This document shows positions 17,858-33,157 of a DNA stretch of 64,000 nucleotides, in pieces. The first letter of the stretch is position 1. Each line of letters begins with the position of its first letter. The notes below the pieces were generated by a model, which was not told the DNA's origin, made no database searches, and saw only the letters and a list, made by a program, of their open reading frames with translations. Origin of the DNA: Candidatus Binatia bacterium (GTDB lineage: Bacteria; Desulfobacterota; Binatia; UBA9968; JAJDTQ01); NCBI GenBank assembly GCA_963666515.2, contig OY762897.2, forward strand, positions 128,001 to 192,000, in the 5' to 3' direction. The translations under genes were made by a program, and so were the position numbers.

Positions 17858-18355
17858 ATGACCATCAAGACTCGTGTGCGAAGCCTGGCCGGTGGCGATG
17901 CGGCGCTCTTTCGGCGTTTACTCGACTTGTTCGGCGACGCATTCGAGGCGTCGGAGACCTATCGCGCCCGTCAGCCGGACGATGACTATATCGAGCGGTT
18001 GCTGGCGAAGGACCACTTCATCGCGCTGGCAGCGTTCGATGCCGAGGACCAGATGACAGGGGCTCTTACCGCCTATGAACTGCAAAAATTCGAGCAGGCG
18101 CGCAGCGAGATCTACATCTACGATCTCGCGGTCCGCGCCGAGAACCGGCGGCAGGGCGTAGCGACCGGCCTGATCCGCCATCTTCAGGACTTGGCGGCCG
18201 AACGCGGGGCTTGGATGATCATCGTGCAGGCCGACCCCGTGGACGAACCGGCGGTCGCTCTCTACACCAAGCTCGGCAGGCGGGAAGACGTGCTTCACTT
18301 CGACATAGATGTGCCGAGCATCGCCGACGCTGCCGCCCGCCCTCCTGCTTCGTGA
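17858..18355 (+). CDS. AAC(3)-I-like GNAT acetyltransferase
   Basis: [40 protein letters not shown] and [28 protein letters not shown] are the AAC(3)-I family signatures. Confidence 0.85.
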
Positions 18356-18399
18356 CCGCCGAGGCTGAGGTGGTCCTCCGTGAATGCGGCACCCGGCGG

Positions 18400-18693
18400 T
18401 CAGGCGGTGGCGAACCTCCTGACCTCGACCGGCTTGCGGTCATGCTGCGCGTGCCAGAGGTCGTACTGCATCTGCTGGGTCAGCCAGCTTTCAGGGCTGC
18501 CGCCGAAGGCCTCCGACAACCGGATGGCCATCTCGGGGGATATGCCGAGGCGGCTGTTGAGCAGCATGGACAGCGTGTTGCGCGATACCGCGAGCCCCCT
18601 CGCGGCCTCGGTCACCGTCAGGCCCAAGGGTTCGAGGCACTGGCGCCGGATGAATGAGCCCGGATGGGGCGGATCGTGCATGAGCATGGGCAT
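18400..18693 (-). CDS. higA: HigA family antitoxin (HTH)
   Basis: MHDPPHPG...[12 protein letters not shown]...[29 protein letters not shown]; GGGAGG RBS upstream. Confidence 0.9.
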
Positions 18694-18700
18694 TGCCTCC

Positions 18701-18762
18701 CTAGCGGTAGTCCAGGTAGTCGACATCAGCGGCGTGGCCTTCGTCAAAACGGAAAATAAGGC
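18701..18762 (-). pseudogene. higB: 3' remnant of a higB toxin gene
   Basis: Minus frame reads [19 protein letters not shown], matching the HigB C-terminus (FRF...DVDY.DYH), directly upstream of higA; no N-terminal part is visible. Confidence 0.65.
18721..18748 (+). repeat. 28-bp direct repeat, left copy
   Basis: CGACATCAGCGGCGTGGCCTTCGTCAAA, identical to 33174-33201. Confidence 0.95.
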
Positions 18763-21700
18763 TCCGTCCAACCCCGCATCATGTGCACTTCCTTCGACAA
18801 TCATTGCCGTTGAAATTCAGTTGATGCGACGCGAAATCCGGTCGCGGAGGTCGGGCGGGGAAGACGCAGTGAGATAACGCCTGCCGTCGGAGGTGAGGCT
18901 CCGTCCGCCTGGGCCGACGCGGATCAGGTTTAGACGGGTCAGATACTCCGACACGATCACGAAGTCCGCCCTGTTCGAGATTCCCAGTGCCCGGCGAATT
19001 TCTTCCTCCGCCGAAGCGCCCCGTGTTCTCAGCAGCTTGAGATATTCGACATGTTCCGAGGTAAGGCCGTTGCCGTCGATGCCTTGTGTATCAAACCACC
19101 GCGCCACGGCGGTTACGTTCATCAGTTCCGCCACTTCCTCCCTGGTAGGCACGCGTCCCAGCCTGTGCTCCGCCGTGCCGTAGAAGCTCGCTACCAGTGG
19201 CTCAAGGATGTTGACGCTTGGTCGCGGACTGCATTGCATGCGCGCCGCAATTTCAATGCAGGTCTCTCGACTCAGGCCGGCTTGCCCGAGCTTCTCCACG
19301 GAGCGGAGCCAGACGATCCCGGCCATCTCCTCAAGCGTGTAGGACCGCAGGATCGTCTTGTCCGGTCGGCTCTGAAACGCTTCCGATAGCCTGCCAGGAT
19401 CCGTTGTTGCCAGAAGAAAGACGACGTCTTCGAAACTATAGACCACGTTGCCGATCGTGGTGTCGCGCCGCTCGTCCAAGGCGCTGAGCAGCACCGTGGA
19501 AACCGGGCTTGCCACCGCATGCACCTCGTCGATGAAGATCAGGCAGGGATCGACGGTAACGGCGTCCGACGCGTCCGCCGGCAGTTTGCCAGCCTCCACC
19601 AAGCGCTCGACGATCATTTCCGGTCGGCGAAGATCGGCGCCGTTGAATGTAATCGGTTCCAACTGAAGCAATCGTTCGGCGATCCGGCGAGCGAGCGTCG
19701 TCTTGCCGACCCCGGCGGGGCCAACGAACAGCTTGTCGAGGAACCGCTCACCCCAACCCTTGGCCTTGCGCGCCTGATTGTCCAGTTCCTGGGCGATCTC
19801 GTGCTGGCCAACCATTCCCAGCGCATTCACCTGCGGCGGCCAGACCCGTCCCTCTCCCGACCCTTCTTCTGCTTCACCCGCTCGGTCGAACGGCGTTGAC
19901 GTCACCGACGCGTCCGTCCCATCCGGACGGTCGATCCCGGTCGCCGCATCGGCGACGGGCGACGACGGTTCATCCCCGGCCACTACAGTCGTTGTTCTCT
20001 CGGTTCTGCCGCTATTTCCCGATCCCGACGCCGCTCCGGAAGCACCGTCGGTCGGCGACGTCACCTCTTTCGCCGGAGCCGCTACGGGATCGCCGCTCGA
20101 ACGCTGCGCACCCCTGTCTTCTCCATCCGAAGCCTCTCCATCCGCACCGTCGTCTTCCGGCGGAGCCTTCGTCACGAAATCACTGCCAAACAGTTCCTCG
20201 GCTGCGCTTTCCGTGATTGTCCTGACCGTGATCGGGATCTGTTTCCCCTGGAGCGGCTTCACCCGGGCCGTTTCCGTCGACCGGAGCTTCACGACAACGA
20301 TCTCGCCATCGACCCGCAGGGCCGGCGGTTCAGCACTGTCGCCGAACAGGTCCTTGAGCAGCGGCCCCCAAATCTTGCGTTGCGCAACGTCGTCCTCATC
20401 TGCACCCCAGCGGTTCGATGCCGCCCTGACCAGGACCTCTTTCAGCATCTCCGACCGCGGTGCCGCAAACGGTCCGGCGCCACTGACCGCGCTCGACAAC
20501 ACCGCCGCCGTCTGCTCGATCTGATCGGCCGCATGACCGATCAGCTTGGCCTCGTCGGACAACGCCGCTCCTCCCGTCGTCTTGACTTCGATACAGGTCA
20601 ACCGGAACGACCCGTCTCCCGCTCGGCGAACCGCGATCAGGTCGCAGCGCTTGCCGCCACCCGCCGGTCCCAGCTTCAGCCAGAGGCGCGCGATCTTGTC
20701 GTCCACCGAAGCCACCAGCGCATCCGGATCCTCGCTTCGCACCTGGCGCGCGGCGAGCAACATACCGACGAACCCAAGCACCGACGCATTGTCGGGCAGT
20801 CCGGACCGTTTCTTGATCATGTCGAGCAGTCCTGCACCGACCAGGTTCACGCCCTGCCGCAGGACTTGGCCCAGGCTCTCGTTCGTGATGGTCAAATTGC
20901 AGTTGCTGAACGCGGTACGCATCAGGGTCGCCAACCGACCATAGTCCGCCGCGCTCAGCAGCACCTGGCGATGCCCTTCCTTGTGCCGCAGAAGCCGGAT
21001 CGACTTCATGCCGTTCTCCGGCGGCAAGGCGCGATCCGCGAGCAATACCCAGTACGCCGGCGGTCGATCTTCGAGCAGCAGGCGGTCGATCGTCGAGCGC
21101 AGCCGATCGGCGTCCGCGGAAGCAATCATCGTGCTGTCGCGCTGCTCCTGCTCGAATTCGTGAATCATCATCACGAAATCGGAAAAGGGCGGTTCACCCG
21201 GGTGCGGGCTCAGACTGATATCGCCCAGCATACGATCCACGACGATCTCGTTGCGCACGCAGAACGGACTCATCGGCAGCAGGCTCTCGACACGTCGACG
21301 CCGGACCGAAATCGCGGATTCATCGAAGATCGCGATCAGGTGCTGAGGTCGTTTCGACAGATCCTCTCGTACCAGCCGATCGAGGTTCTCATGGCTATCG
21401 CGTGCGACGCGGATATCGAGCCTCCCGGCAGAAACCTTCTCGTAGACCAAGTCCTGTGCCCTGCCTTCGAGGGTCGATGCCGCGATCAGCCGGTCTCTGT
21501 GCCCCGCCGTAGCGACGATCGTCACATCGAGCGCCGCAAGGCGCCGCGGCGTGTTCCGCCGCTCGTTCAGGAACTTTGTCAGCCGCTCCAGTAGCCGCGC
21601 CGCTTCCGGCGGGTTGACGAGCGTCAACCGAAGCGGCCGCGGATGGTTGGGGTAGAGCATCACAAAGTGATCGAGCGCCAGGACCAGCGTCTCCATGCCG

Positions 21701-23391
21701 TCGGCGCTACTGATCGCGTTATGCAGGTTCTCGAACGTTGCGAGACCGCAAATGGTGTTTGCGACGGGCAGCAGTTGATTGAGTCCCCGGCCTTCCGGTG
21801 TGGCGCCGGTCCTGATCACGCCGACAAAATGTTCCGGCCGGCGTAACTCTTTGATTACGACCTTTCTGTCGCTCTCGGACATCGGCCCGGCATGCGAGAG
21901 ATCGCGCAGGATTTCACCGAAGCGCTGATACCGCCACAAATGCAGAGGATGCAGCGGCAGCATCACCGCCTTGGCGCGGACCCCGCCGTCCGGACCCGCC
22001 ATGCGGACCTGTACTAGGTCGAGCGTCAGAATCGCGTCCAACGTCGCCTGAGCCCACTCGCGCGACTGGTCCCAGACGGCGCGGTAATTCTTCTGGACGG
22101 CCCCGTAGAGTTCGGTTGCCACTGCAAGATAGCGTGCGCAGTTCGCACACGTTTCAGGATGCGTGTCGAGCCACTCGCGCGGATGGATGAGAAGCGGCCG
22201 CACCATGTCCGCCAGGGACGCGCGCGCAGCGACGAAGTCGCGCCACATCTCGGCAATCGGGCGTCGGCAGGCTTCGGCAACCGCGTCCACCTCGTCCCAC
22301 GCTTCCAGCAGTGCCTCGATCGAATAGGCGACCCCGTCGTGTTTCCAGACCGCCTCCGGGTTCAGGAACACGGGATCGAACTCGGCATGGCGCGCCAACG
22401 CCTGCGGCAGGTCGTCAACGTCGACTTCCATGAACCCGCCGAACCGGTCCGTGTCGCAAAAGGCCGTAACCCAGTCGATGATCTTGGAGTCTACCCGTTC
22501 GTCGAGTCTGGCGGTGCCTTGGCTTGTCTCCTGATTGGACGCGAGCCGATCTCCGTTCTGCTCGAATTCCTCCCACGCCGCCTCGAGCGCCTCGCCTAGC
22601 GCGGCAAGGTCTTCCTCCCGCCCCTCAAGCAGCGCGTCCACCGCCATGTCATGCAGATCGGGCTCGTCCTCCTCCTCAGTGTCATCAGCCTCGTCATCGG
22701 GTTCGTCGTCAACTTCCGGATCATCGGGCTCCGGGCCGTAAGGGTCCGGCTTGTCGGGGGGCAGGGTTACGATTTGCTCTGCATCCTCAGGGGTCAGACC
22801 TGCATCGGGGCGGCCGCGTCGATATGCCTCCAGCCGGTCGAGTGCCCCGCTCAGCCGTTCCGCCGTCGCCGCGTTGCTGTAACGGGTCGCACGCTCACGC
22901 CGCTGCCTGATATCCCCCGGCGACATGCTGGTGACGCGCTCGCCGATCCGCAGATTGTATTCGAGCCGCTTTGCTAGGTCATCCGCCTCGAACAATCGAG
23001 GGTCGCGCAGCAGTCCAAGGGCGGGAAGAACGTCACGCGGCCTGCCTATCGTCCCGTCTCCGACATCGCTCCATTCGGCGAGAAAGACCGCGATGCCCTC
23101 CAGGGACCGAATCGAGCTCAGCTCCCGCGCCTCGCGTAGCGTCTCGAGCAGCACCCGATGCTGCGGCGTCGCTGTGAACTCGGGTTCGTTTTCCGCCCAA
23201 CGCAGCAGAATGGCCGCGAGCTCTCCCGAAGAGGCACGAGAGAAGAAGCGCAGACCGTGGACGCTCGGATTGTATCCGCGCGCTAGCGCGACAATCCTCG
23301 GATGCCGTTCCCGATCGTTGCGCCACTCGGTGGCGACGTGGAGATCAAGCGTCAGGCCAGCCAACTCGTCGAGCCCTTTTGCTTCCGCTAA

Positions 23392-25463
23392 CCCAAGTTT
23401 AACAAGGGTATTTGAAAGTCGTTATAAATTGTGGGGTTAGCGGGGCGATTTTGGTCTTCTGGCACTACATTCTGGAGTTTTAACGGATAATTCTGGAGAG
23501 TTCAGACGGTCAACTTTTTGGTACCGCCGGGTGCAGGATTGAGGCCGAGAGCGTTGTAGATTTCAATCTGCTGGAGTTCGGCCTGGGTGGCCTTGCGGAC
23601 ATGGAGGGTGCGGCCGTTCTTGCGGCGGAAGGTGGCGGTGACCCGGTGTTGGCCCTGGAGTATGCGGCGCAAGGTGGTCCAACTAGCGGTCTCGCCCAAG
23701 GCGGCGAGGCGGCGGCGGATAATCTGCACGAGTTGGTAGGCGATGACGGTGATGAACAAATGGCCGTCGGAGCGGTGCTGCTTGTGGTGGAAGATGGGAC
23801 GCAGGCCGAGTTCGGACTTGAGGGAGCGGAAGACGGCTTCGAGATCGGTGAGCATGGTGTAAGTGTGCCAGAGGGTTTGCGGGTCCGAGTCGCCGAGGTT
23901 GGTGCGCAGACAATAGACGCCGGGATGAGTGAGCATGGTGCCCGGGCGGGGCTGGCGCTTCCAGGTGACGGCCACGGCCTTGTCGCCTTGGATGTCGGCC
24001 ACGACCTCGACCTGGTAATGCTGAGCGGCCCCTCGGCTTTGCTCCTGGATGCGCCCGATGCGCTGCCAGACATGGTCGAGGGCCTTGCGGGTGCGGGGGC
24101 GGGAGAGCCCCTCGTGGAGTTTTTGCAAGGCGCCTTCGAAGCGTGCGGCAAAGCGTTCGGCGATGCCTCGTTCTTTTTTGGCGCGAGCTTCGGAGTAGCA
24201 GTAAAGCCGCACCTCGTCGTGGTCGTCGTCGACGACCCGGTGCAGGTGAACCTTTTGGTGGGAACGGGTCTCGATGGCGGTAGCCAGTTCGGGATCGAAC
24301 AGCCGGGTGCGTTGGCGGCTGACCACCAGATAGCGGTAGCCGTGGCTGCGCAACCAGGCGATGTTGTTCTCGGTGGCAATGCCTGCATCCATCACCACCA
24401 CAGAATCGGCGGGTGCCTGGAGGGTTTCAAGCATGGATGCCAGTGTCTTGTCTTCGTCGGCATTGCCGGCAAACACTTCCGAGCGGCGCACGAAGCCGGA
24501 ACCGTCCAGCACCAGTCCCAGGGTGAGCAGCGGGCAGTCGCTGCGCTTCTCTTTCGAGTGCCCCCGCCTGGCCTTGGGCTGGCCTTGAGCTTCGCCCTCA
24601 AAGAAGGTGTTGGTGAGGTCGTACAGCGTCACCGTGTGCCTCAGGCTGAACAACTCCGTCACCCGATCAAACAGGTGATTTTCGATGGCCTCGCGATGGG
24701 CCATCAGCGTATCCGAGGCACGGTAGAGCCGCATCAGGCTCAGGCTCTCGAAGTCCACGCCGAGCAACTCGCCGAGAGCGCTGCGGTTGCACAACCACCG
24801 CCAAGTGGCCCGTTCCGATCCGGGCTGTGCCATGCGCCCGATGATCAACGCCAAGGCTGCTGCCCTTTGCCGACCGTTGAACCCCAGCCCCTCCAGAAAC
24901 TCATCCAGGCCGACCTGCCCCATAGCCCACAGTCCTACATGCTCCACCCCCACCGAGCGCGGGCGCACTAACTCCAACGAGTCCACATCCACCGCCTGCA
25001 CATCCCCTCCGCCGCCTTCCGCCCGAGGCGCCCGGCTCACCAGTTGCATGGCGATCCGTTGGGCCTCCCGTTCCACCTCTTCCGAACACCCCAACTCCAC
25101 CAGCACCGCTTGCGGGTCGATCAATTGTTCGATGCGCGTACACAACACCGCCCAATGTTCCAGCGCCACCGCGAAGTCACTGCCGAGATTGAGCAGGGTG
25201 CGCTGCCGCACCCGCCCGCCGGTGCGCTCGGAGCGCACCAAGCGGTGGGTGAAGTAGCTCTTGCCCCGGTCGGCGCCGCGGGTCTGGGTGCGGCGGATGA
25301 ACATGGGTGCAGGATATCAGAGGGCGGAACGAGAATCAACAGAATATTTCAATTATGGCACTACATCAGGCTCCCCAAATCCCTACCTCAATAAATACAA
25401 CAGCTTAGAAGCTACAGCCGTGCCCAAATACCCCAAAATCCCCACATTCATGTTAAAGATGGG
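23392..25463 (-). mobile_element. IS1634-family insertion sequence
   Basis: Imperfect terminal inverted repeats CCCAAGTTTAACAAG / CCCATCTTTAACATG (reverse complement), flanking duplication CTAA (23388-23391 and 25464-25467; possibly GCTAA), AT-rich ends and one transposase ORF. Confidence 0.9.
23502..25304 (-). CDS. IS1634-family DDE transposase
   Basis: RVRQRTLLNLG, LYDLTNTFFEG, RGHSKEKRSD, VVMDAG and LEAVFRSLKSELGLRPIFH motifs; 600 aa, apparently intact. Confidence 0.93.
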   Translation of the reverse strand: MFIRRTQTRGADRGKSYFTHRLVRSERTGGRVRQRTLLNLGSDFAVALEHWAVLCTRIEQLIDPQAVLVELGCSEEVEREAQRIAMQLVSRAPRAEGGGGDVQAVDVDSLELVRPRSVGVEHVGLWAMGQVGLDEFLEGLGFNGRQRAAALALIIGRMAQPGSERATWRWLCNRSALGELLGVDFESLSLMRLYRASDTLMAHREAIENHLFDRVTELFSLRHTVTLYDLTNTFFEGEAQGQPKARRGHSKEKRSDCPLLTLGLVLDGSGFVRRSEVFAGNADEDKTLASMLETLQAPADSVVVMDAGIATENNIAWLRSHGYRYLVVSRQRTRLFDPELATAIETRSHQKVHLHRVVDDDHDEVRLYCYSEARAKKERGIAERFAARFEGALQKLHEGLSRPRTRKALDHVWQRIGRIQEQSRGAAQHYQVEVVADIQGDKAVAVTWKRQPRPGTMLTHPGVYCLRTNLGDSDPQTLWHTYTMLTDLEAVFRSLKSELGLRPIFHHKQHRSDGHLFITVIAYQLVQIIRRRLAALGETASWTTLRRILQGQHRVTATFRRKNGRTLHVRKATQAELQQIEIYNALGLNPAPGGTKKLTV

Positions 25464-25678
25464 CTAACGCACGCAACTCCTTTTCCGTTGTGTCAACTCC
25501 CACCAGCGCTAACGAGAATCCTCCGGCCGGCAGACCTCCCGCCGACAGCGCTTGCAGCAGGCACGGAATATCGAACTCCGGAAGCCCCTCCCGTGCGAAA
25601 TCGTTTTCGTCTTCTAAGCGCGAGAGTATCCAGGCTGCCAAGGCCTGGCTGACTAGCGATGCAGCCGTACGCGGCATC

Positions 25679-27013
25679 TCAAATAAGCTCCTCTGCATCA
25701 ATGGCTACCAGCGTCAGACCGTCGGACGGTTCGACCGCCAGCCCCAGCCTGACAAGGAGTGCCTGAAAGGCAGTTGCGTTCGGAAGCAGGTCTTCATCCT
25801 GATCGAGAGGCCCGAACCGGTTTGCGCGCAGGTTGTCGCCATCCGCCGCGTGGGCCCCGACCACGACCGACCAGGTCGTTCTGAGCTGCGCCGCGAATTC
25901 CGGCAGCGTCATCACTTGATCCTTCTCGAGCAGGCTGTATGCCAGAACCCGAAGCGTGTCCGCCTGCAACTCGACATGCTTGTGCTTCGCGACCGCCGAG
26001 CGGGGCTGCACGATGCCGATCCGTACGCCCAGGTCCCGAAAGTGCTCGTCCAGCACCTGCCGCGCTTCGGCGGAACTAGCGAACACGGTCCAGTCGTCTT
26101 CCTGGATGGCCGAACCATTGTCGTCCTCGAATGCCCGGTCATAGCTGAACGAGAAGAGATCCAGCGCCCGGGTATAGGTCGCACGGCTCTGTGCGCGGAT
26201 CCTGGGATTGCTGCCCTGCAGTGCGTCGACAAGCAGAAGCGGTGAGTCGCTTCCCTGGCGCATCATGTAGGCAAACAGCCAGCAACAGAGCCCAATCACC
26301 ATGTAGCGCATCGAATAGTTGGACTGCAGCCGCTCTAGATTCGCCGCAAGCCGGCCGACCGCAATCGTGCAGTCTTCCATTCCCGACCCGATCCGCGCCA
26401 GCCGCTCCGGCTTGATTTCTCCATAAAGCTCGTCGTGTTTGTCGCACCATTCTTCGGCCACGTCGTCGAGCAGCGGCTCGCCAAACGCGGCCAAGGGCGG
26501 CGGCGGTAGCTCCAGCAGCCTCCTGATTCCTTCGAGCGTCTCTCTTCCCGCGGCGGTCGCTTCCAGGACTGAAAGGACGAAGCTTCCCGAGTACCCATGA
26601 TTCTTCGACCGGTGCGAGATGTAGCGGGTTGAGGGGGCGCTGTAGTCCGCGCCGAACGTCGAATAGGGAGGGTAAACGGCCGACAGTGCCGACCCGTCGT
26701 TGTTGTATGCCGCGTTCAAGTGCGCGCGCAACGTGCGGAACGCCTCCAGGTCGACCGACTGATCCAATATGCCGCGTTCAACCAGCAACGGATGAAGGCG
26801 GTCGGCGGGATACTCGTCGCGAACTCTTGGACCGTCCTTCGGCGCCGTCTTCGGCACCGACGCCTTGTTCAGGGATTCCAGCCGGTAGTAGCGGCCGGTC
26901 AATGCCAGAAGAAAACTCGTGGCGAAGTGGACGGGCTTCATGCGGAAGGGCTGATAGCCGAGGATGGCCCCATGCACGCGACGCACCGCATCTGTATCCC
27001 GTGCCCTAGCCAT
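25679..27013 (-). CDS. Hypothetical 444-aa protein, third gene of the operon (DndG/DptG-like position)
   Basis: Start MARARDTD at 27013 overlaps the upstream stop. C-terminus L.RLGLAVEPSDG resembles the DndG-type C-terminal SD motif as I recall it. Confidence 0.7.
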   Translation of the reverse strand: MARARDTDAVRRVHGAILGYQPFRMKPVHFATSFLLALTGRYYRLESLNKASVPKTAPKDGPRVRDEYPADRLHPLLVERGILDQSVDLEAFRTLRAHLNAAYNNDGSALSAVYPPYSTFGADYSAPSTRYISHRSKNHGYSGSFVLSVLEATAAGRETLEGIRRLLELPPPPLAAFGEPLLDDVAEEWCDKHDELYGEIKPERLARIGSGMEDCTIAVGRLAANLERLQSNYSMRYMVIGLCCWLFAYMMRQGSDSPLLLVDALQGSNPRIRAQSRATYTRALDLFSFSYDRAFEDDNGSAIQEDDWTVFASSAEARQVLDEHFRDLGVRIGIVQPRSAVAKHKHVELQADTLRVLAYSLLEKDQVMTLPEFAAQLRTTWSVVVGAHAADGDNLRANRFGPLDQDEDLLPNATAFQALLVRLGLAVEPSDGLTLVAIDAEELI

Positions 27014-28616
27014 AGCTGCGTACCCGCTCGAAGCGGCTTCTGTCCGCGCTGAGGTTAACTTGAATAAGCTCAAGGTTTTCGAGGTGGATAGACCAGACCG
27101 AGTCGCGCTCGCCGACCGTGCCCGCACTGAGCTTCTGGAGGAAGGCGTCCAGGCGGTGAATGTCCCGCTCCGGAATCAGCTTCCGCGGCAGGCCACGCGC
27201 CAAGCGGCAGAGCGTCCGCCAAAGCGGGAAATCGATTCTCAACCGCGGTGTTCCGGAGAGCCGGCGGGCCGTCAATGCGATGTGATCTGAGCGATAGTCG
27301 AAGCATCTCTCCAACCGCGCCGGCAGTCGAGGCACCTCGGTGACGAAATCATCCGTCGCCACGCGTTCAGTGGCGACGAAGGAGCGTGAGGGCTGCTCGT
27401 GAAAGCGATGACCGTTCCACAGGTACAGGTGCTGGTCCCGCGAATCGAAGTGGCGCGGGCAGTACGCAGCGTTGATGGCATCGACGAGATTTGCGACCAG
27501 CATCCGACCCGATCCTTTTCTGCCCTGCACGAGATCCTCGAACTCCTTCGCATCTGCATCGGCCAAGTCGAACACCTCCTCGCCCTTCTCGTGCTCGAAA
27601 TAGAACCGGCGCTTGAGCGCAGCGAAATTCTCCCAGTCGAGCATCGGATGTGGCGTCGGCACTGGGGCCTGCAGCACCCATCCTTCGCGCACCTCGGGCG
27701 CGCGAGCATCGAGCGCGGCGTCCCATACGGGATGGCTGCAACCTGCAGGATCGACTGCCTGCAAAGCCTCCGTCAAGTCGAAGCGGTCGTCCCGTTCAAA
27801 CAGGGCCTCCGAATACCAGTCCATGCGCTGATACTCGCCGTGCTCCTCCGTTCCGAACACCATTCGCGCGAACAGGATCCACAGCTCCCGCACCGTCGCC
27901 CGATGGCCGAGCGCCACCATGCGCTCGGCAAGCGCCCTCAGCCGCGCCCGCACCTGGGGATGGGCGAGACGTTCGACGTTCCGACGGACAACAGCCTCCC
28001 GCGGACTGGCCAAGGCCGTCTTCACTCCTTCGTCGTCAAGCAGCCTGTCCAGCATAGAATCGAAGAATTCGCCGCCCAGCGGGTTCCGAAGACTGAGGTC
28101 GATCACCACTACGTTGCCGGCGCACCCGGTGGTCTCATCGTCCCCGTAAGCCAGACGGTCCTGACACTGCCGCCCGACTTCCACCAAGTGTGGGGCTGAC
28201 ACATCGGCCATTCGCAACTGGTAAAGCGGATATTCGTTCGCGGCCAAGCAAAAGGGCCGCCCGCCCTCGATGGCCTCGCGCCACTTCTTCAGGATCGGAC
28301 CCGGATCGTCGCCGCGCATCTCGGCGGTCGCGTCCTCGACCACGACAGCGCCGACGCTTTCAAGGTCATGCTTCACGCGCCGCAGCAAGTGCGTTTTCCC
28401 ATCGCCGGCATTTCCGGTCACGACGACATTCCTGCCCGCCCGCACCTGCTCGCCGAGAAACCGTTCGATTCCGCTTTCGATATGCAGTCGGTCGAAATCT
28501 TCTTCGGTCAGCGCTTCCGCGATGGCTTCCCTGCCTGCCGCGGCAAGCGTGCGCCACAACTGACTGCCGTCTCGTACGCCCTCTGCCTTTGCCGTGCTGC
28601 CTCCCCCTTCACTCAT
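27006..28616 (-). CDS. P-loop NTPase, DndF/DptF-like, 536 aa
   Basis: VVVTGNAGDGKTHLL Walker A, VVEDATAE, LAANEYPL, VIDLSLRN and TVRELW; ATGA overlap with the upstream gene. Confidence 0.75.
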   Translation of the reverse strand: MSEGGGSTAKAEGVRDGSQLWRTLAAAGREAIAEALTEEDFDRLHIESGIERFLGEQVRAGRNVVVTGNAGDGKTHLLRRVKHDLESVGAVVVEDATAEMRGDDPGPILKKWREAIEGGRPFCLAANEYPLYQLRMADVSAPHLVEVGRQCQDRLAYGDDETTGCAGNVVVIDLSLRNPLGGEFFDSMLDRLLDDEGVKTALASPREAVVRRNVERLAHPQVRARLRALAERMVALGHRATVRELWILFARMVFGTEEHGEYQRMDWYSEALFERDDRFDLTEALQAVDPAGCSHPVWDAALDARAPEVREGWVLQAPVPTPHPMLDWENFAALKRRFYFEHEKGEEVFDLADADAKEFEDLVQGRKGSGRMLVANLVDAINAAYCPRHFDSRDQHLYLWNGHRFHEQPSRSFVATERVATDDFVTEVPRLPARLERCFDYRSDHIALTARRLSGTPRLRIDFPLWRTLCRLARGLPRKLIPERDIHRLDAFLQKLSAGTVGERDSVWSIHLENLELIQVNLSADRSRFERVRSYG

Positions 28617-30673
28617 CCGTTCGAGTCTCCCACCACTGGCTCTTCAGCCTCGCCCAGCGGTACAAAAACGTCCCGCGGCAAGGCGGCCATGCTGGACTGA
28701 TGACGAAGCCGACTGGCAAGCCAACGCCGGCGCCAGAAGGCCGCGATACGTTCCGTGGCGTCCTCGTATCCGTCCGGTGCCGCGACATAGCCTGGCAACT
28801 CCGTTACGCGCTCCTGCAACCAATCCCGCGCCTTCGGAAAGAGCGGAGCGCCGTAGATCAGGCGGTGATGTCGATGCTGGATCAGCTTGTCGGGATCGAA
28901 TCCCAGCTTGCGAAGACCCATCTTCACCTTGCGTAGCTTCGGACTCGTCCCTTCCCCGAAGACGCTGTTCACCTCCTTGAAATCGCGTTCGTAAGCGAGA
29001 TAGGCATCGATCGCCCTACTTGTATCCGGCGAGAATTGAATCGTCCCGAAGCCCGAAGTCTGACCGATCGCGTTGTAAGGGATGCTTTCCTGCTCCGGGG
29101 CGATCGTGCCCGCAGGCAACTGCAGCCGATTGTATTGACTGGAGCCGTGCACGTAGAGGCTGGTCGTGCCAAGATAAACAAGTGTGCTGTCGCGTATGAC
29201 GCGACGGTTTTTCATCTGCGACGAGATGATAGACGGACTTGCATATCGGCGTCGGTAGTCGGCGCTGACCTGCGGGCTAAGCATCAGCAGAGCGACCAGC
29301 TTACCACCAAGAATTCGATTGTACGGCGCGATCGCACCGCATGTCGTGATTTCAAGCAGATTGGCGCCGGCCCGTCGCCCCTTAAGCGCCTCCAGCACGA
29401 TATTGATGGCGCTTCCAACCTTGTCTTTCCCAAGCGCTGTACACGCGAGGTCAGGGTCGGTGAGTTCCTCCCGGTGCTGTGCGATGACGAGCCGGGCCGA
29501 GAGCAGGCGTGACAGTGCCAGGGCTCGCTTCTTGGCCACGAGCTGCTTGCGGGCGGCATGCATGCGCGCGTCGACGGACGCCTTGGCCTCCAGTTTAAGG
29601 ATGTCGTCATCGACCGGAGGAGCTGTTGCATCGTTCCAGAGATCGGCCTCGAATTGATCCTGCGTAGAACCGGCGACCTCCCTGAGCAGAGTTTCCCGCA
29701 ACTTCGAGAATTCTTGGCTGCGCAGTGCGAGCCGACGAACCACCGCATCGTCGGGAGATTCCACTTCTTCCGCAGTTACGAGATTGGTCCAATCGATTTC
29801 CGCGAGCGACGTCTCGAGTTGGTGTTCCAGCCACCGAACTTCCTCTCTCAGCGCCGCCTTGCCGTTGGCTGCGGCCCCGATGAACCGTTCGACGATAGCT
29901 GCGAGGTGCCATCCGATGTATCGCTCGCGCTTCTCGCCCATTTCGAGAGGACAATTGTTCAGCGCGGCGATACCGATGACTGGATGCGCCCGATGCGCGG
30001 CGTCTCTCACAAGGTAAAGGAGCTGCCGTCCCGGGGTCGACACTTGCGGTATCGACCAAGTGTATCGGAAATAACGCCAAATCTCGCGGAGCTGCCGTCC
30101 GGTCGTCGGATCCACACTCCCGTCCGCTTCCTGAAGATACGGCTTGATGGCGTCGCCCAGAGCCGCCACCTTTTCATCGCCTTCAAGGTCGCGTGCAGGC
30201 GCGAGCCTTGCTGCCAGCTCCGCTCCGTCCGCCGTGAGCAGTCGCACACTACGCCGACCTGAACGGTCTTCTCTTTCCATCCTGGCAATAAAGTCCAAAA
30301 CGGCAGGGTGCCGTTTCTGCTCATCGACAATGGGCTGCAACTCACCGCGTAACATCTTCTTGCTGGCTATAATCTCCGATGTTGGCCGTCCACCGACCCG
30401 TTCCTTGCGATTCTCCAGAGCGAATCCGTAGCCTTGTTCGGCGATACGCCAGCGCAGCCGCGCGAGATCGGACAGAACCCTGATACACGCTTCATAGGCC
30501 AACACGTTTTCTTCGCTGCACTTTGCTGATTGGCACCAATTTATCTCTTCCTCCAATGCACCACTAATGTCGTTCGCGTTGCGCGCACGCTGGGCACACG
30601 CGAGTCTCATTGCAAACGCATGAAACCGCTCAGCGGATTCTCCATCCAGGGGTGGAAATATCGGTACGATCAT
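28613..30673 (-). CDS. DruA (DUF4338)-family protein, 686 aa
   Basis: IWRYFRYTWSIP..STPGRQLLYLVRDAA..HPVIGIAAL, CGAIAPYNRILGGKLVALL, TTSLY..GSSQYNRL, GQTSGFGT and FGEGTSPKLR are signatures of long DruA/DUF4338 proteins. Confidence 0.8.
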   Translation of the reverse strand: MIVPIFPPLDGESAERFHAFAMRLACAQRARNANDISGALEEEINWCQSAKCSEENVLAYEACIRVLSDLARLRWRIAEQGYGFALENRKERVGGRPTSEIIASKKMLRGELQPIVDEQKRHPAVLDFIARMEREDRSGRRSVRLLTADGAELAARLAPARDLEGDEKVAALGDAIKPYLQEADGSVDPTTGRQLREIWRYFRYTWSIPQVSTPGRQLLYLVRDAAHRAHPVIGIAALNNCPLEMGEKRERYIGWHLAAIVERFIGAAANGKAALREEVRWLEHQLETSLAEIDWTNLVTAEEVESPDDAVVRRLALRSQEFSKLRETLLREVAGSTQDQFEADLWNDATAPPVDDDILKLEAKASVDARMHAARKQLVAKKRALALSRLLSARLVIAQHREELTDPDLACTALGKDKVGSAINIVLEALKGRRAGANLLEITTCGAIAPYNRILGGKLVALLMLSPQVSADYRRRYASPSIISSQMKNRRVIRDSTLVYLGTTSLYVHGSSQYNRLQLPAGTIAPEQESIPYNAIGQTSGFGTIQFSPDTSRAIDAYLAYERDFKEVNSVFGEGTSPKLRKVKMGLRKLGFDPDKLIQHRHHRLIYGAPLFPKARDWLQERVTELPGYVAAPDGYEDATERIAAFWRRRWLASRLRHQSSMAALPRDVFVPLGEAEEPVVGDSNG

Positions 30674-31122
30674 TGGCCCGCAACACTCTTCGATCCGCGA
30701 GGATTCTTACTTTCGCTCCATGCACCAAGACTTCGGCGAGCGCCTCGAACAGGCTGTTCACCAAGTCCTCGCCGCGGCCTTGGTCATTCCTGTCGGACTG
30801 GCGAGCTGATTGGCGATCCCCGTTGTTCGTGGCTTCCGCTTCTTGACCCGGCGGCAGCATGGCGCCGTTCCCTGACGGCTGATCGCCCCAATCATCCGTT
30901 CGACTACCACGAATCGCCATCGGTTGCGATGCTCGGGGTCCCCTTGTGAGGTGGTCTCACTTCGGTGGACAGGTAGGCGGCAGAAATGAGGTATCTTCCG
31001 GGTGGTCGATCATGCCGCTAGGGTCCTGTTTCCATGAAATAAGTGTGAACGGTCAGCGTCCGGGCCAGACGGCAGGGCACTTTTCTTTGCGTCTGATTTG
31101 CAGTATGATTGCAATATAGCCA

Positions 31123-32346
31123 ATGTACTATACGCGCACTCTTGAATCGTACTGGCTGGAGGTCTCGCGGCAGTTCCCCGTGCTGCTGCTGACCGGCCCA
31201 CGTCAAGTCGGGAAGACTACGCTTCTGCGGCACCTTGCGGAAGACGCTCGCCGTTATGTCTCCCTCGACAATCCGGTGCTGCGTGATCTGGCGAATGACG
31301 ATCCGGCGCTCTTCTTGCAGCGGTACGAGCCGCCGGTGCTCATCGACGAGATTCAGTATGCTCCCGGACTATTGCCGCTGATCAAGGTGATCGTGGACGA
31401 CAATCGCCAGCCGGGGCTGTTCTGGCTGACGGGGTCGCAGCAGTTCCAGGCCATGAGGGGCGTTTCCGAGTCCTTGGCGGGGCGGGTCGGAATCATCAAC
31501 CTGCTGGGCTTCTCCTCCCGCGAGCGACATCAACGTGATGCCGCCGTGTCTCCTTTTCTGCCGACGCGGCCCATTCTGGCCGAGCGCCAGCCGGCGCTTC
31601 GCATGAGCGGCCTCGACGAGGTGTACCGCGATATCTGGACTGGTGGATTTCCCGGGCTTGTTGCCGGCCCGATCAACGACCGCGAGCTGTTCTACAGTTC
31701 CTACTTGCAGACTTACCTTGAACGAGACCTCCGCGCCCTGTCACAGGTCGGCAATGAAATGGCGTTCCTCCGCTTTCTCAAGGCATGCGCGGCGCGAACC
31801 GCTCAGATGCTCAATCTGTCCAACTTGGCCCGCGACGCCGACGTAAGCGTCAACACCGCGAAGAACTGGCTCTCGATCCTGCAGGCGAGCCTCCAGGTCG
31901 AGCTGCTTCAGCCGTACCATGCCAATGTCACGAAGCGTCTGGTCAAACGGCCGAAGCTGTACTTCCTCGACACCGGCTTGTGCGCGTATCTGACGGAGTG
32001 GACTTCCCCCGAGACCCTGGAGGCCGGCGCCATGTCGGGAGCCATGTTCGAGACCCACGTGGTGGCGGATATCCTGAAGAGTTGGTGGCACAGGGGGAGA
32101 AGGCCGCAGTTGTACTACTACCGCGACAAGGACGGCCGGGAGGTGGACCTGCTGTTCGTCGCCGATGGGACCCTTTATCCGGTCGAGATCAAGAAGTCGG
32201 CTTCGCCCCGGAGATCCTGGTTGCCGGCCTTCGCCGCTCTACGGCGGCTGGACATGCCGGTGGGCGAGGGGGCGGTCGTGTGTCTCTGTGACCAGCCGGT
32301 CCCCTTGGACGACCATGTCAATGCTGTCCCGGTCGGGCTGGTGTAA
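31123..32346 (+). CDS. AAA_14 ATPase with DUF4143 (restriction-endonuclease-like) C-terminus
   Basis: LTGPRQVGKTT, IDEIQYAP, LTGSQ..ESLAGR, KLYFLDTGL and EVDLL...PVEIKKS. Confidence 0.9.
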   Translation: MYYTRTLESYWLEVSRQFPVLLLTGPRQVGKTTLLRHLAEDARRYVSLDNPVLRDLANDDPALFLQRYEPPVLIDEIQYAPGLLPLIKVIVDDNRQPGLFWLTGSQQFQAMRGVSESLAGRVGIINLLGFSSRERHQRDAAVSPFLPTRPILAERQPALRMSGLDEVYRDIWTGGFPGLVAGPINDRELFYSSYLQTYLERDLRALSQVGNEMAFLRFLKACAARTAQMLNLSNLARDADVSVNTAKNWLSILQASLQVELLQPYHANVTKRLVKRPKLYFLDTGLCAYLTEWTSPETLEAGAMSGAMFETHVVADILKSWWHRGRRPQLYYYRDKDGREVDLLFVADGTLYPVEIKKSASPRRSWLPAFAALRRLDMPVGEGAVVCLCDQPVPLDDHVNAVPVGLV

Positions 32347-32462: not shown

Positions 32463-32521
32463 AATACCCCCTGCGGTTTCGACCGCAGGGCGCGGGGCCT
32501 CTTCGGAGGCCCTTGCTTTTT
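32463..32521 (+). ncRNA. Candidate ~60-nt structured RNA or attenuator upstream of the NYN gene
   Basis: Hairpin CCCTGCGGT-TTCG-ACCGCAGGG (32469-32490), then GGGCCTC-TTCG-GAGGCCC (32495-32512) followed by TTGCTTTTT. Confidence 0.55.
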
Positions 32522-32533
32522 CTACGGGCGTTG

Positions 32534-33157
32534 ATGCGTACCTTCGTCTATGTCGACGGGTTCAATCTGTACTACGGAGCACTCAAGGGCACGTCATGGA
32601 AATGGCTGGATCTGCCTGCTCTGTTCGCGAAGGTGCTGCAGCCGCACCACGACATCCTGACGGTCAAATATTACACAGCGCGAGTGTCTGCCACGCCCGC
32701 CGACCAGTCGAAACCCCAGCGACAAGACGTCTATCTCCGCGCCCTTCGGCACTATCGACCCGAGGTTGACGTGTATTTCGGGCATTTCCTGAGTCACGCG
32801 GTGCGAGCACCCCTCGCTCGTCCGGTGGGGAACCGGCGTGTGGCAGAGGTGATTCGCACCGAGGAGAAGGGCTCGGACGTCAATCTCGCAGTTCATCTGC
32901 TCAATGACTGCTGGCTGGACGCGTACGACTGCGCAGTGGTGGTCAGCAACGATAGCGATATCGCGGAAGCGATGCGCTTGGTAAGGCAGTATCACGCCAA
33001 GCGGATTGGTCTGGTGACGCCGGGAAGCAGCAGACCGTCGCGCCAACTGATGGCACATGCGGATTTTTCGAGGCGTGTCCGGCCCAATGCCCTGCGGGAC
33101 TCGCAACTGCCGGACCCGATACCGGGCACCAACATCCGAAAACCCGCAGGCTGGTAG
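32534..33157 (+). CDS. NYN domain (LabA/DUF88, PIN-like) RNase
   Basis: MRTFVYVDGFNLYYG, EEKGSDVNLA and VVSNDSDI catalytic acidic motifs. Confidence 0.9.
   Translation: MRTFVYVDGFNLYYGALKGTSWKWLDLPALFAKVLQPHHDILTVKYYTARVSATPADQSKPQRQDVYLRALRHYRPEVDVYFGHFLSHAVRAPLARPVGNRRVAEVIRTEEKGSDVNLAVHLLNDCWLDAYDCAVVVSNDSDIAEAMRLVRQYHAKRIGLVTPGSSRPSRQLMAHADFSRRVRPNALRDSQLPDPIPGTNIRKPAGW

Follow-up and report, generated by a model that had tools for sequence, protein, structure and literature searches.

A RuvB-like motor behind a putative nuclease in a probable DndFGH-like cassette of a Candidatus Binatia bacterium

The window analysed here is a stretch of 64,000 nucleotides from the genome of a Candidatus Binatia bacterium (assembly GCA_963666515.2, contig OY762897.2, positions 128,001 to 192,000), and one of its loci raises the question of why an ATPase that resembles RuvB should be encoded in one polypeptide with a nuclease-type motif. 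RuvB is the AAA+ motor with which RuvAB drives the branch migration of Holliday junctions. The initial annotation treated 18817-20650 on the minus strand as a unit, a ring translocase independent of RuvA that carries its own nuclease and possibly acts on branched phage replication or recombination DNA. The motor and an invariant D..ExK motif do share a polypeptide, but they are only the C-terminal third of a gene of 1594 codons, which is split by an insertion sequence (IS) and stands last in a cassette of four genes in the order DruA, F, G, H on one strand. Sequence comparisons make it probable that motor and nuclease motif are the tail of the H effector of an anti-invader system like DndFGH and SspFGH, with a RuvB-like ring pump where relatives carry HerA, FtsK or TrwB, and that this copy of the system is dead.

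The RuvB-like motor and the nuclease-type region of H

The features of the C-terminal part of H, all on the minus strand, are the following.

18820-19848, minus strand: RuvB-like AAA+ module (ATPase domain, lid and winged helix), about the last 345 codons, from profile and BLASTP matches
19699-19722, minus strand: Walker A of the module
19519-19539, minus strand: Walker B of the module
18871-19071, minus strand: winged-helix match of the module
19849-20175, minus strand: low-complexity linker, 109 amino acids (residues 1064-1172), rich in A, G, T, S, D, E and P
20242-20784, minus strand: putative restriction-endonuclease (REase) region of PD-(D/E)XK type, with the core RCDL...IEVKT at 20578-20649 and a fold predicted from the motif

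Residue numbers of the motor, nuclease and linker motifs are those of a 1515-amino-acid open reading frame (ORF) at 18817..23364 on the minus strand. The motor starts at residue 1173 and carries Walker A (GPAGVGKT, 1215), Walker B (IFIDEVH, 1276), the arginine finger SRP (1332-1334) and the sensor 2 motif SPRP (1379-1382); across its family these catalytic motifs are invariant or near-invariant. Every motif listed in the initial annotation was found where it had been placed, and its description of the tail as RuvB-like throughout is borne out. The NCBIfam RuvB model (NF000868, E 7.5e-19) aligns end to end with the motor, residues 1183-1500 with positions 26-326 of 330, and is ten orders better than the next families, DnaX (1.3e-8) and FtsH (1.3e-6); RuvB is likewise the best match in Pfam and among PDB sequences. 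Among Protein Data Bank (PDB) sequences, the top eight rows of a phmmer search with the single motor sequence were all RuvB (3pfi best, 6.6e-9; for Thermus thermophilus RuvB, residues 20-336 aligned to 14-314), and a search with the family profile also put RuvB first (3pfi, 7.8e-10). Pfam matched AAA (5.5e-17); as for the three RuvB domains that the initial annotation had named for checking, RuvB_N was above its cut-off (2.6e-7, 31.0 bits versus 27), RuvB_C fell just below (3e-4, 21.1 bits versus 24.7) and AAA_lid_4 had no match at E<=0.01.

When the genome of the window was searched with the RuvB model, a canonical ruvB located elsewhere scored 440.8 bits, the motor was second with 60.6 bits (covering model positions 6-304 of 305) and the third match had 36.4 bits. 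Identity between the motor and this RuvB is 23-27% (27% over 252 amino acids by BLASTP, 4e-12; 72 identities in 319 positions aligned by MAFFT). The motor keeps the IGQ motif, Walker A and B, the ATT sensor-1 region, the arginine finger, sensor 2 and the G-R of the wing, the latter followed in the motor family by a near-invariant G-R-R-Y, and by alignment alone it has the three-domain AAA+/lid/winged-helix layout of RuvB. It differs by about 13 extra residues inserted after Walker A and before Walker B, by another insert before the winged helix, and by a deletion of seven residues exactly at the tip of the beta-hairpin, seen against both its own genome's RuvB and 3pfi in hidden Markov model and MAFFT alignments, where the initial annotation had noted a shortening. 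In RuvB this hairpin is the docking site for domain III of RuvA (preprint 10.1101/2022.09.22.509074). Because the docking hairpin is truncated and a separate canonical ruvB is present in the genome, the motor very probably works without RuvA, as first supposed, and it is classified here as a RuvB-like module, not a RuvB orthologue.

The linker, initially put at about 100 residues, is indeed of low complexity, and its counterparts in 41 RuvB-type relatives have 67-111 residues rich in P, A, S, E, T and G; it does not, however, adjoin the nuclease motif directly, as about 135 conserved residues lie between it and IEVKT. RCDLIAV starts at residue 906 (nucleotide 20649) and IEVKT at residue 925 (nucleotides 20592-20578), and all 31 diverse relatives compared, like all 30 rows of an alignment (A5), keep the D, E and K of this core unchanged, together with a Q downstream of it. 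A search of the ESM Atlas with the REase region returned unnamed fragments only, and Pfam gave two spurious matches at E<=1 for the 1064-residue N-terminal region of H. Intact H, of 1594 amino acids, would consist of about 1100 residues of family-specific N-terminal domains followed by the D..ExK domain, the flexible linker and a ring-forming DNA motor. There is a second low-complexity stretch in the N-terminal region (22630-22780, minus strand, residues ~196-245 of the 1515-amino-acid ORF), extremely acidic with runs of D, E and P.

Gene 4, which encodes H, runs to 25677, immediately 3′ of the stop of the upstream gene, and is present in two parts.

25463-25677, minus strand: 5′ fragment of gene 4 (H), codons 1-71 and two bases of codon 72
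23393-25462, minus strand: IS1634-family IS of 2070 bp that splits gene 4 after codon 72 and is not part of the system
18817-23386, minus strand: 3′ fragment of gene 4 (H), codons 72-1594 and the stop

The 1515-amino-acid ORF, which begins at an internal TTG at 23364, is an artefact of ORF listing. A close intact homologue (P0002) has 1594 amino acids and is 97% identical, other close homologues have about 1590, and the two fragments minus one copy of the repeat left by the IS amount to exactly 1594 codons. That repeat is a 6-bp target duplication, GTTAGC, at 23387-23392 and 25463-25468, the upstream copy being the last six nucleotides of the 5′ fragment. In translation the 5′ fragment corresponds to residues 1-72 of P0002, followed by HL and a stop inside the IS (an own-genome search gave 99% identity to residues 1-73), and the 3′ fragment matches P0002 at 1470 of 1514 residues with no stop or frameshift, keeping all 492 of the family-invariant positions that it covers. 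The IS has imperfect terminal inverted repeats (pair I1) and a transposase ORF at 23502-25304 (600 amino acids; NCBIfam IS1634 transposase, 294.3 bits versus a cut-off of 100); it matches four places in the genome, namely itself, one full copy (93%) and two partial copies (94% and 91%). Contigs of four public runs, all from one study that is possibly the source of the window itself, bridge both junctions of the IS without a difference and with at least 31 letters on each side (23392/23393 in X18, X19 and X20; 25462/25463 in X19, X20 and X21). Within these four runs no contig joins the gene across the IS, a result by which contigs cannot show that an IS-free form is absent. Over the interior of the IS the run contigs have raised depth and many variant letters, as expected because the IS family is multi-copy. 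Since the rest of gene 4 is undamaged and its family-invariant positions are all kept, the insertion looks recent. An own-genome search found no second copy of gene 4, only the two fragments; split after codon 72, the gene is a pseudogene, and the system is very probably inactive in this genome.

Shorter proteins (at least 120 listed, of 169) were considered as possible stand-alone versions of the motor and rejected as such: all 19 that were checked by BLAST align to the C-terminal part of P0002, seven of them reach into its N-terminal region, and their sequences are read as fragments or internal-start calls of the H family.

The cassette and the exchange of motors

The three genes that precede gene 4 in the cassette are these.

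28613-30673, minus strand: gene 1, DruA-like protein (DUF4338), 686 amino acids (PADLOC DruA1 2.8e-126; Pfam DruA 1.9e-29)
27006-28616, minus strand: gene 2, F subunit, a DndF/SspF-like P-loop protein, 536 amino acids (PADLOC SspF 3.9e-13, DndF 5.9e-4)
25679-27127, minus strand: gene 3, G-position protein, 482 amino acids as listed, its position kept in related loci

The gene 1 product aligns nearly over its full length with DruA1 (residues 42-666 with 44-649 of 675) and is the sole DruA match in the genome; a profile search with it among PDB sequences gave one spurious match (E 0.36). The ATG of gene 2 overlaps the stop of gene 1 by four nucleotides. The GTG start listed for gene 3 overlaps gene 2 by 122 nucleotides (27006-27127), and the real start is probably further downstream; G has no family match in Pfam, NCBIfam or PADLOC. 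A promoter and terminator scan of 18300-31200 was at chance level (3 versus 2.3 expected; 11 versus 10.4 expected).

Genes for DruA, F and G stand in the same order in 13 of the 16 related loci found in a first round; in the other three, the contig either ends after G (two loci) or starts at H (one). When more distant relatives were added in a second scan, the number of distinct loci rose to 50, and wherever at least 5.6 kb of upstream sequence was available all three genes were found, with four exceptions in 35 loci: L021 has no DruA match, L024 has no G match at 1e-6, and in L042 and L051, where H is shortened at its N-terminus, DruA alone was seen upstream. In 24 of the 37 loci that show both, DruA and F are fused in one ORF of about 1200-1380 amino acids, and in 13 they are separate, including all 11 loci with data from the clade of the window; it seems that either this clade split a fusion or other loci (L020-L053) fused two genes. 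Judging by record titles and source names, hosts of RuvB-type H include Alpha- and Gammaproteobacteria, Acidobacteriota, Verrucomicrobiota, Planctomycetota, Actinomycetota, Bacillota, Cyanobacteriota, Gemmatimonadota and a metagenome-assembled genome of Methanomicrobiales. On three haloarchaeal plasmids (L059, L079 and L080) the cassette is annotated, in all three cases, as DruA/DUF4338 (705 amino acids), hypothetical protein (519), hypothetical protein (~500) and 'DNA translocase FtsK' (~1530). RefSeq names the haloarchaeal first gene product 'Druantia anti-phage system protein DruA', with no other Druantia gene there, and in two of the three loci genes for a hypothetical protein and a DUF262 protein come after the cassette.

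The N-terminal body of H is shared by proteins with quite different motors. A search with the N-terminal 1040 residues yielded 256 representatives at 50% clustering, the full-length ones nearly all of 1500-1630 amino acids; among 51 listed representatives of at least 1400 amino acids, eight have a RuvB-like tail and most others a P-loop domain with FtsK-type TQRP or HerA-type signatures. In a sample of 31 distant relatives (A2), Pfam identified FtsK_SpoIIIE, TrwB and DUF87/HerA motors. The motor types of the 50 distinct loci, which were drawn by pattern scans so that the counts are not frequencies, are as follows.

RuvB-like: 31 loci
Second weak HerA/TrwB/AAA_10 type (P0133 type): 11 loci
HerA/TrwB-like (P0130 type): 4 loci
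FtsK/SspH type: 1 locus
Truncated: 3 loci

The three main types all occur behind the same DruA-F-G genes. One distant relative, P0159 (1760 amino acids), has an FtsK/SspH-type motor and then, at residues 1599-1759, a BrxL/Lon_C-like domain (BrxL 6.8e-18), a third kind of module at the C-terminal end of H.

The trees of the N-terminal bodies indicate that motors have been exchanged repeatedly. In a FastTree phylogeny of the N-terminal 1100 residues (77 rows, with 14 truncated or duplicate rows left out), the RuvB label needs five changes, at least four of them forced by starred branches; in an IQ-TREE phylogeny of 30 rows picked to span the groups it again needs five, at least three of them forced. 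The RuvB-type loci L021 and L023 nest within the P0130-type clade beside L022 with 100% support in the Shimodaira-Hasegawa-like approximate likelihood ratio test (SH-aLRT). An approximately unbiased test, from which the long-branch row P0150 was left out and for which the group was defined after the tree had been seen, rejects a single clade of 15 RuvB-type rows (log-likelihood difference 307, p 2.2e-5). In their own tree the RuvB-like modules largely group as the bodies do, and the modules of L021 and L023 are also joined with those of L026 and P0127 (95% support), a pattern from which RuvB-like modules seem to have been both inherited and re-acquired between cassettes. The direction of exchange cannot be inferred because the trees are unrooted. 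Because sister lineages hold pumps of the HerA/FtsK/TrwB class in the same position, generic pumping of double-stranded DNA is preferred over branch migration, and the RuvB-like motor is best read as an interchangeable ring pump for a restriction-type nuclease, not as a Holliday-junction enzyme.

Upstream of the cassette, on the plus strand, are genes for a DUF4143/AAA_14 ATPase (31123-32346) that matches the PADLOC defence candidate PDC-S01 (4.2e-108) and an NYN-domain protein (32513-33157) that matches the PADLOC candidate HEC-09 (7.4e-44). The G+C content is 0.59-0.64 across 18-32 kb, versus 0.66-0.68 at 10-18 kb and 0.67 at 34-36 kb. The setting suggests a small defence-type island and not a prophage, the latter because no phage record holds the protein: five phage records match H, through the AAA+ part only and at no more than 20% coverage. 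A gene for a HigA-family antitoxin-like helix-turn-helix protein (18400-18804, minus strand, 98.7 bits versus a cut-off of 47.7) begins 13 nucleotides downstream of the stop of H. No HigB-like ORF was noted beside it, though no search was aimed at HigB. The HigA-like protein has no match in any of the 16 first-round loci, and its gene is for that reason not considered part of the cassette.

Ties to DndFGH and rival explanations

According to a study of Dnd systems by Krishnan et al. (PMC10853773), DndH strings together DNA-binding domains, a methylase that is inactive, an REase that is active and a HerA/FtsK ATPase 'captured' from six clades; the P-loop kinase-like DndF serves as a sensor; DUF4338, a GNAT domain, is in some cases fused to the N-terminus of DndF, the GNAT-like DruA being proposed as a back-up co-effector; DndFGH is often uncoupled from dndABCDE; and relatives of DndH are proposed to bind replication intermediates. 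For comparison, a reference set was drawn from annotated dptFGH of two Bacillaceae plasmids and 19 genomes, with 120 listed DptH proteins. With hhalign, F matched 21 Bacillota DptF at 95.9% probability (E 5.8e-9, 441 columns; cross-controls P 0.45 and 0.93) and an earlier two-row DptF profile at 95.1%, the 536 residues of F aligning to the C-terminal 520 residues of DptF (572-787 amino acids). The sizes of the other subunits run parallel (G 482 amino acids, DptG 459-483; H 1594, DptH ~1720-1820). In the hhalign alignment of H with DptH, LPLHPLHLWRY falls on TPFHPLMVAFK, and RCDL...IEVKT...Q..T pairs with DDLL...VEVKI...Q..T at the highest confidence digits. On separate scoring, the two segments gave P 0.0046 (HPL) and 0.0018 (D..EVK..Q), versus 0.35, 0.46 and 0.12 for three unrelated DptH segments and 0.78 for a reversed template. 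It is probable, though this is not proof, that the bodies of H and DptH are distantly homologous, and layout, F subunit and weak collinear profile matches together tie the cassette to DndFGH.

If H is the effector of such a system, foreign DNA would be recognised by the complex through F, G and the N-terminal modules of H; the tethered RuvB-like modules would, without RuvA, assemble around duplex DNA as a ring and pump it, and the REase domain would then nick or cut the pumped DNA. A linker of 67-111 residues would let six tails meet. This pump-and-cut scheme is proposed because the DndFGH complex has been reported to have nickase and translocase activity (PMC11662687), because the alternative occupants of the motor position are all ring pumps of double-stranded DNA, and because the structure of RuvB has duplex DNA passing through its central pore (10.1101/2022.09.22.509074).

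Several results weigh against this explanation. The overall hhalign probability of H with DptH is 2.6% (E 0.018), albeit over a collinear alignment of 1237 columns, and G shows no similarity to 21 DptG (hhalign P 0.4). The curated DndH, DptH and SspH models of PADLOC and NCBIfam do not match H, and the matches of its distant relatives to SspH (12 of 31) and DndH (9 of 31) cover the C-terminal HerA/FtsK motors only; homology in the N-terminal region was therefore ruled out as the source of these matches. A search of 301 genomes of the phylum with the DptH model (TIGR03237) gave no match and is uninformative, since the controls were equally silent. The profile of the REase region had no match among PDB sequences at E<=10, and its fold is putative. 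The motor itself misses the RuvB family cut-offs widely (TIGR00635, 56.5 bits versus 299.05; NF000868, 67.8 versus 282). T. thermophilus RuvB contacts DNA through R297, R300 and R302 of the hairpin of its C-terminal domain and R101 next to Walker B (10.1101/2022.09.22.509074); of these only the arginine of the wing G-R is kept in the motor, in which the residue after Walker B is not arginine. Finally, DndC (TIGR03183) has no match in the genome of the window, which is 98% complete (SspD was not searched for), and is above cut-off in none of five related genomes; coupling to phosphorothioation is for that reason unlikely.

Alternatively, the same cassette and protein might use the RuvB-like module not as a processive pump but as a switch, clamp or remodeller, driven by ATP, by which the nuclease is licensed or assembled, much as McrB-type or Lon/BrxL-type ATPases act elsewhere, and this reading, which is unlikely though it merits attention, draws on the distance from the RuvB cut-offs, on the loss of two of the three DNA-contacting wing arginines and of the arginine next to Walker B, and on the BrxL/Lon_C domain behind the motor of P0159, by which non-pump modules occur at this end of H too. 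What speaks for a pump instead is that the modules alternating with the RuvB-like one are all ring DNA pumps of the HerA/FtsK/TrwB class, that RuvB itself has been solved with duplex DNA in its pore, and that the G-R of the winged helix and the following G-R-R-Y are near-invariant. The exchange of motors also bears on the proposal of the initial annotation, by which a branch-migration motor independent of RuvA and equipped with a nuclease of its own acts on branched intermediates of phage replication or recombination. No family is closer to the motor than RuvB, the hairpin for RuvA binding is cut short, and the binding of replication intermediates proposed for relatives of DndH would suit such a role; nevertheless, it is improbable, given that the motor position is freely exchanged with FtsK, HerA and TrwB pumps, which are not branch-migration enzymes, that no junction-binding partner or domain was detected, that the nuclease aligns with the type II restriction-like domain of DptH and not with a resolvase, and that no phage record carries the protein.

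Two further explanations concern the cassette or the gene as a whole. The nearly full-length DruA1 match and the RefSeq name of the haloarchaeal homologue might suggest a form of Druantia type I with H in place of the DruE helicase, yet genes 2-4 have no match to DruB, DruC, DruD or DruE, DUF1998/MZB is matched in the genome only by a 687-amino-acid frame some 270 kb away, and F is homologous to DndF/SspF, which leaves this interpretation with very little probability. That the motor is a housekeeping RuvB paralogue for recombination repair, as family resemblance and a name used by one source ('Holliday junction resolvasome RuvABC ATP-dependent DNA helicase subunit') would have it, is scarcely credible when a canonical ruvB is present elsewhere, when the motor sits on a 1594-amino-acid protein of a patchily distributed, horizontally spread cassette, and when the gene is dispensable here because it is broken by the IS.

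With the motor read as the pump of a DndH-type effector, a broader proposal can be made, tentatively: the C-terminal motor of such effectors may be a plug-in, exchanged across the HerA/FtsK and AAA+ classes of P-loop ring ATPase, and its RuvB-like version may be the first motor of the RuvB family to work elsewhere than in the branch migration of Holliday junctions, as a pump of double-stranded DNA that serves an immune nuclease and is independent of RuvA. If so, the sole requirement at the motor position would be a ring able to thread duplex DNA, and the naturally occurring sister pairs of RuvB and HerA type (for example L021 and L023 versus L022) would be ready-made chimeras.

Novelty and comparison with known systems

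DndFGH systems with GNAT-DndF fusions and captured motors are already published; what appears to be new is an AAA+ RuvB-like motor in the slot of the DndH motor and its repeated exchange with motors of the HerA/FtsK class. A full-text literature search found no paper that combines DndH or DndFGH with RuvB or a RuvB-like motor, and the only paper found to link DUF4338 to Dnd is PMC10853773, in whose main text 'RuvB' occurs 0 times, although variants of this kind may be listed in its supplements. What has been published on DndH-type effectors as 'HerA/FtsK capture' would be extended to an AAA+ motor, and the replacement of ring pumps by non-homologous ones, with the body nearly unchanged, offers strong evidence, by comparison, of the purpose of the motor. 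A RuvB-family module that acts without RuvA would be useful for learning what RuvA contributes to RuvB. The annotation of a family now named variously 'Holliday junction resolvasome RuvABC ATP-dependent DNA helicase subunit', 'AAA family ATPase' and 'DNA translocase FtsK' can be corrected, and the DruA/DUF4338 protein of Druantia type I is linked to DndFGH-like systems in bacteria and haloarchaea.

RuvB is a stand-alone protein of about 330 amino acids in a ruvA/ruvC setting. The motor of H shares its layout and motifs, whereas it has the shorter hairpin and the inserts, is fused behind a nuclease region as the tail of a 1594-amino-acid protein, and belongs to a defence-type cassette with no link to ruvA or ruvC. 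Likeness to Druantia type I is confined to gene 1; the cassette lacks matches to DruB-E, and the partners of its DruA homologue are DndFGH-like. MADS has an obligatory three-gene core, MAD6-MAD7-MAD8, that includes an ATPase-nuclease pair (10.1101/2023.03.30.534895, PMC13662399), a resemblance to which may be added that 22 of 31 distant relatives of H have HerA/FtsK motors matched by the PADLOC mad8 model and, as a weak lead only, that Pfam MAD7 is found on 24% of the members of the ESM Atlas neighbour cluster of G. Unlike MADS, the cassette contains no methyltransferase, and F, G and H have no significant match to mad6, mad7 or mad8 (for H, mad8 at 0.0028, P-loop only).

The closest parallels are SspFGH and DndFGH. 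In SspFGH, all three genes of which are required for defence (PMC8092258), there is likewise an H-type protein with a C-terminal DNA-translocase-like domain, and SspF is the best PADLOC match of F; the differences are that the SspH motor is FtsK-like, that H and G do not match the SspH and SspG models, and that no ssp or dnd modification gene was noted near the cassette (SspD, again, not having been searched for). With DndFGH as described by Krishnan et al. (NAR 2024, PMC10853773), the cassette shares three co-directional genes with similar sizes of G and H and a homologous F core, the fusion of DUF4338/GNAT with F (here in 24 of 37 loci) and the uncoupling from dndABCDE. It departs from DndFGH in that H shows no more than marginal similarity to DptH in its N-terminal region, G is not similar, and DruA is encoded by a separate gene in the clade of the window. 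Like DndH, H is a giant protein in which an REase motif is followed by a C-terminal ring motor of varied origin; unlike that of DndH, its motor is in this cassette a RuvB-like AAA+ module instead of HerA/FtsK.

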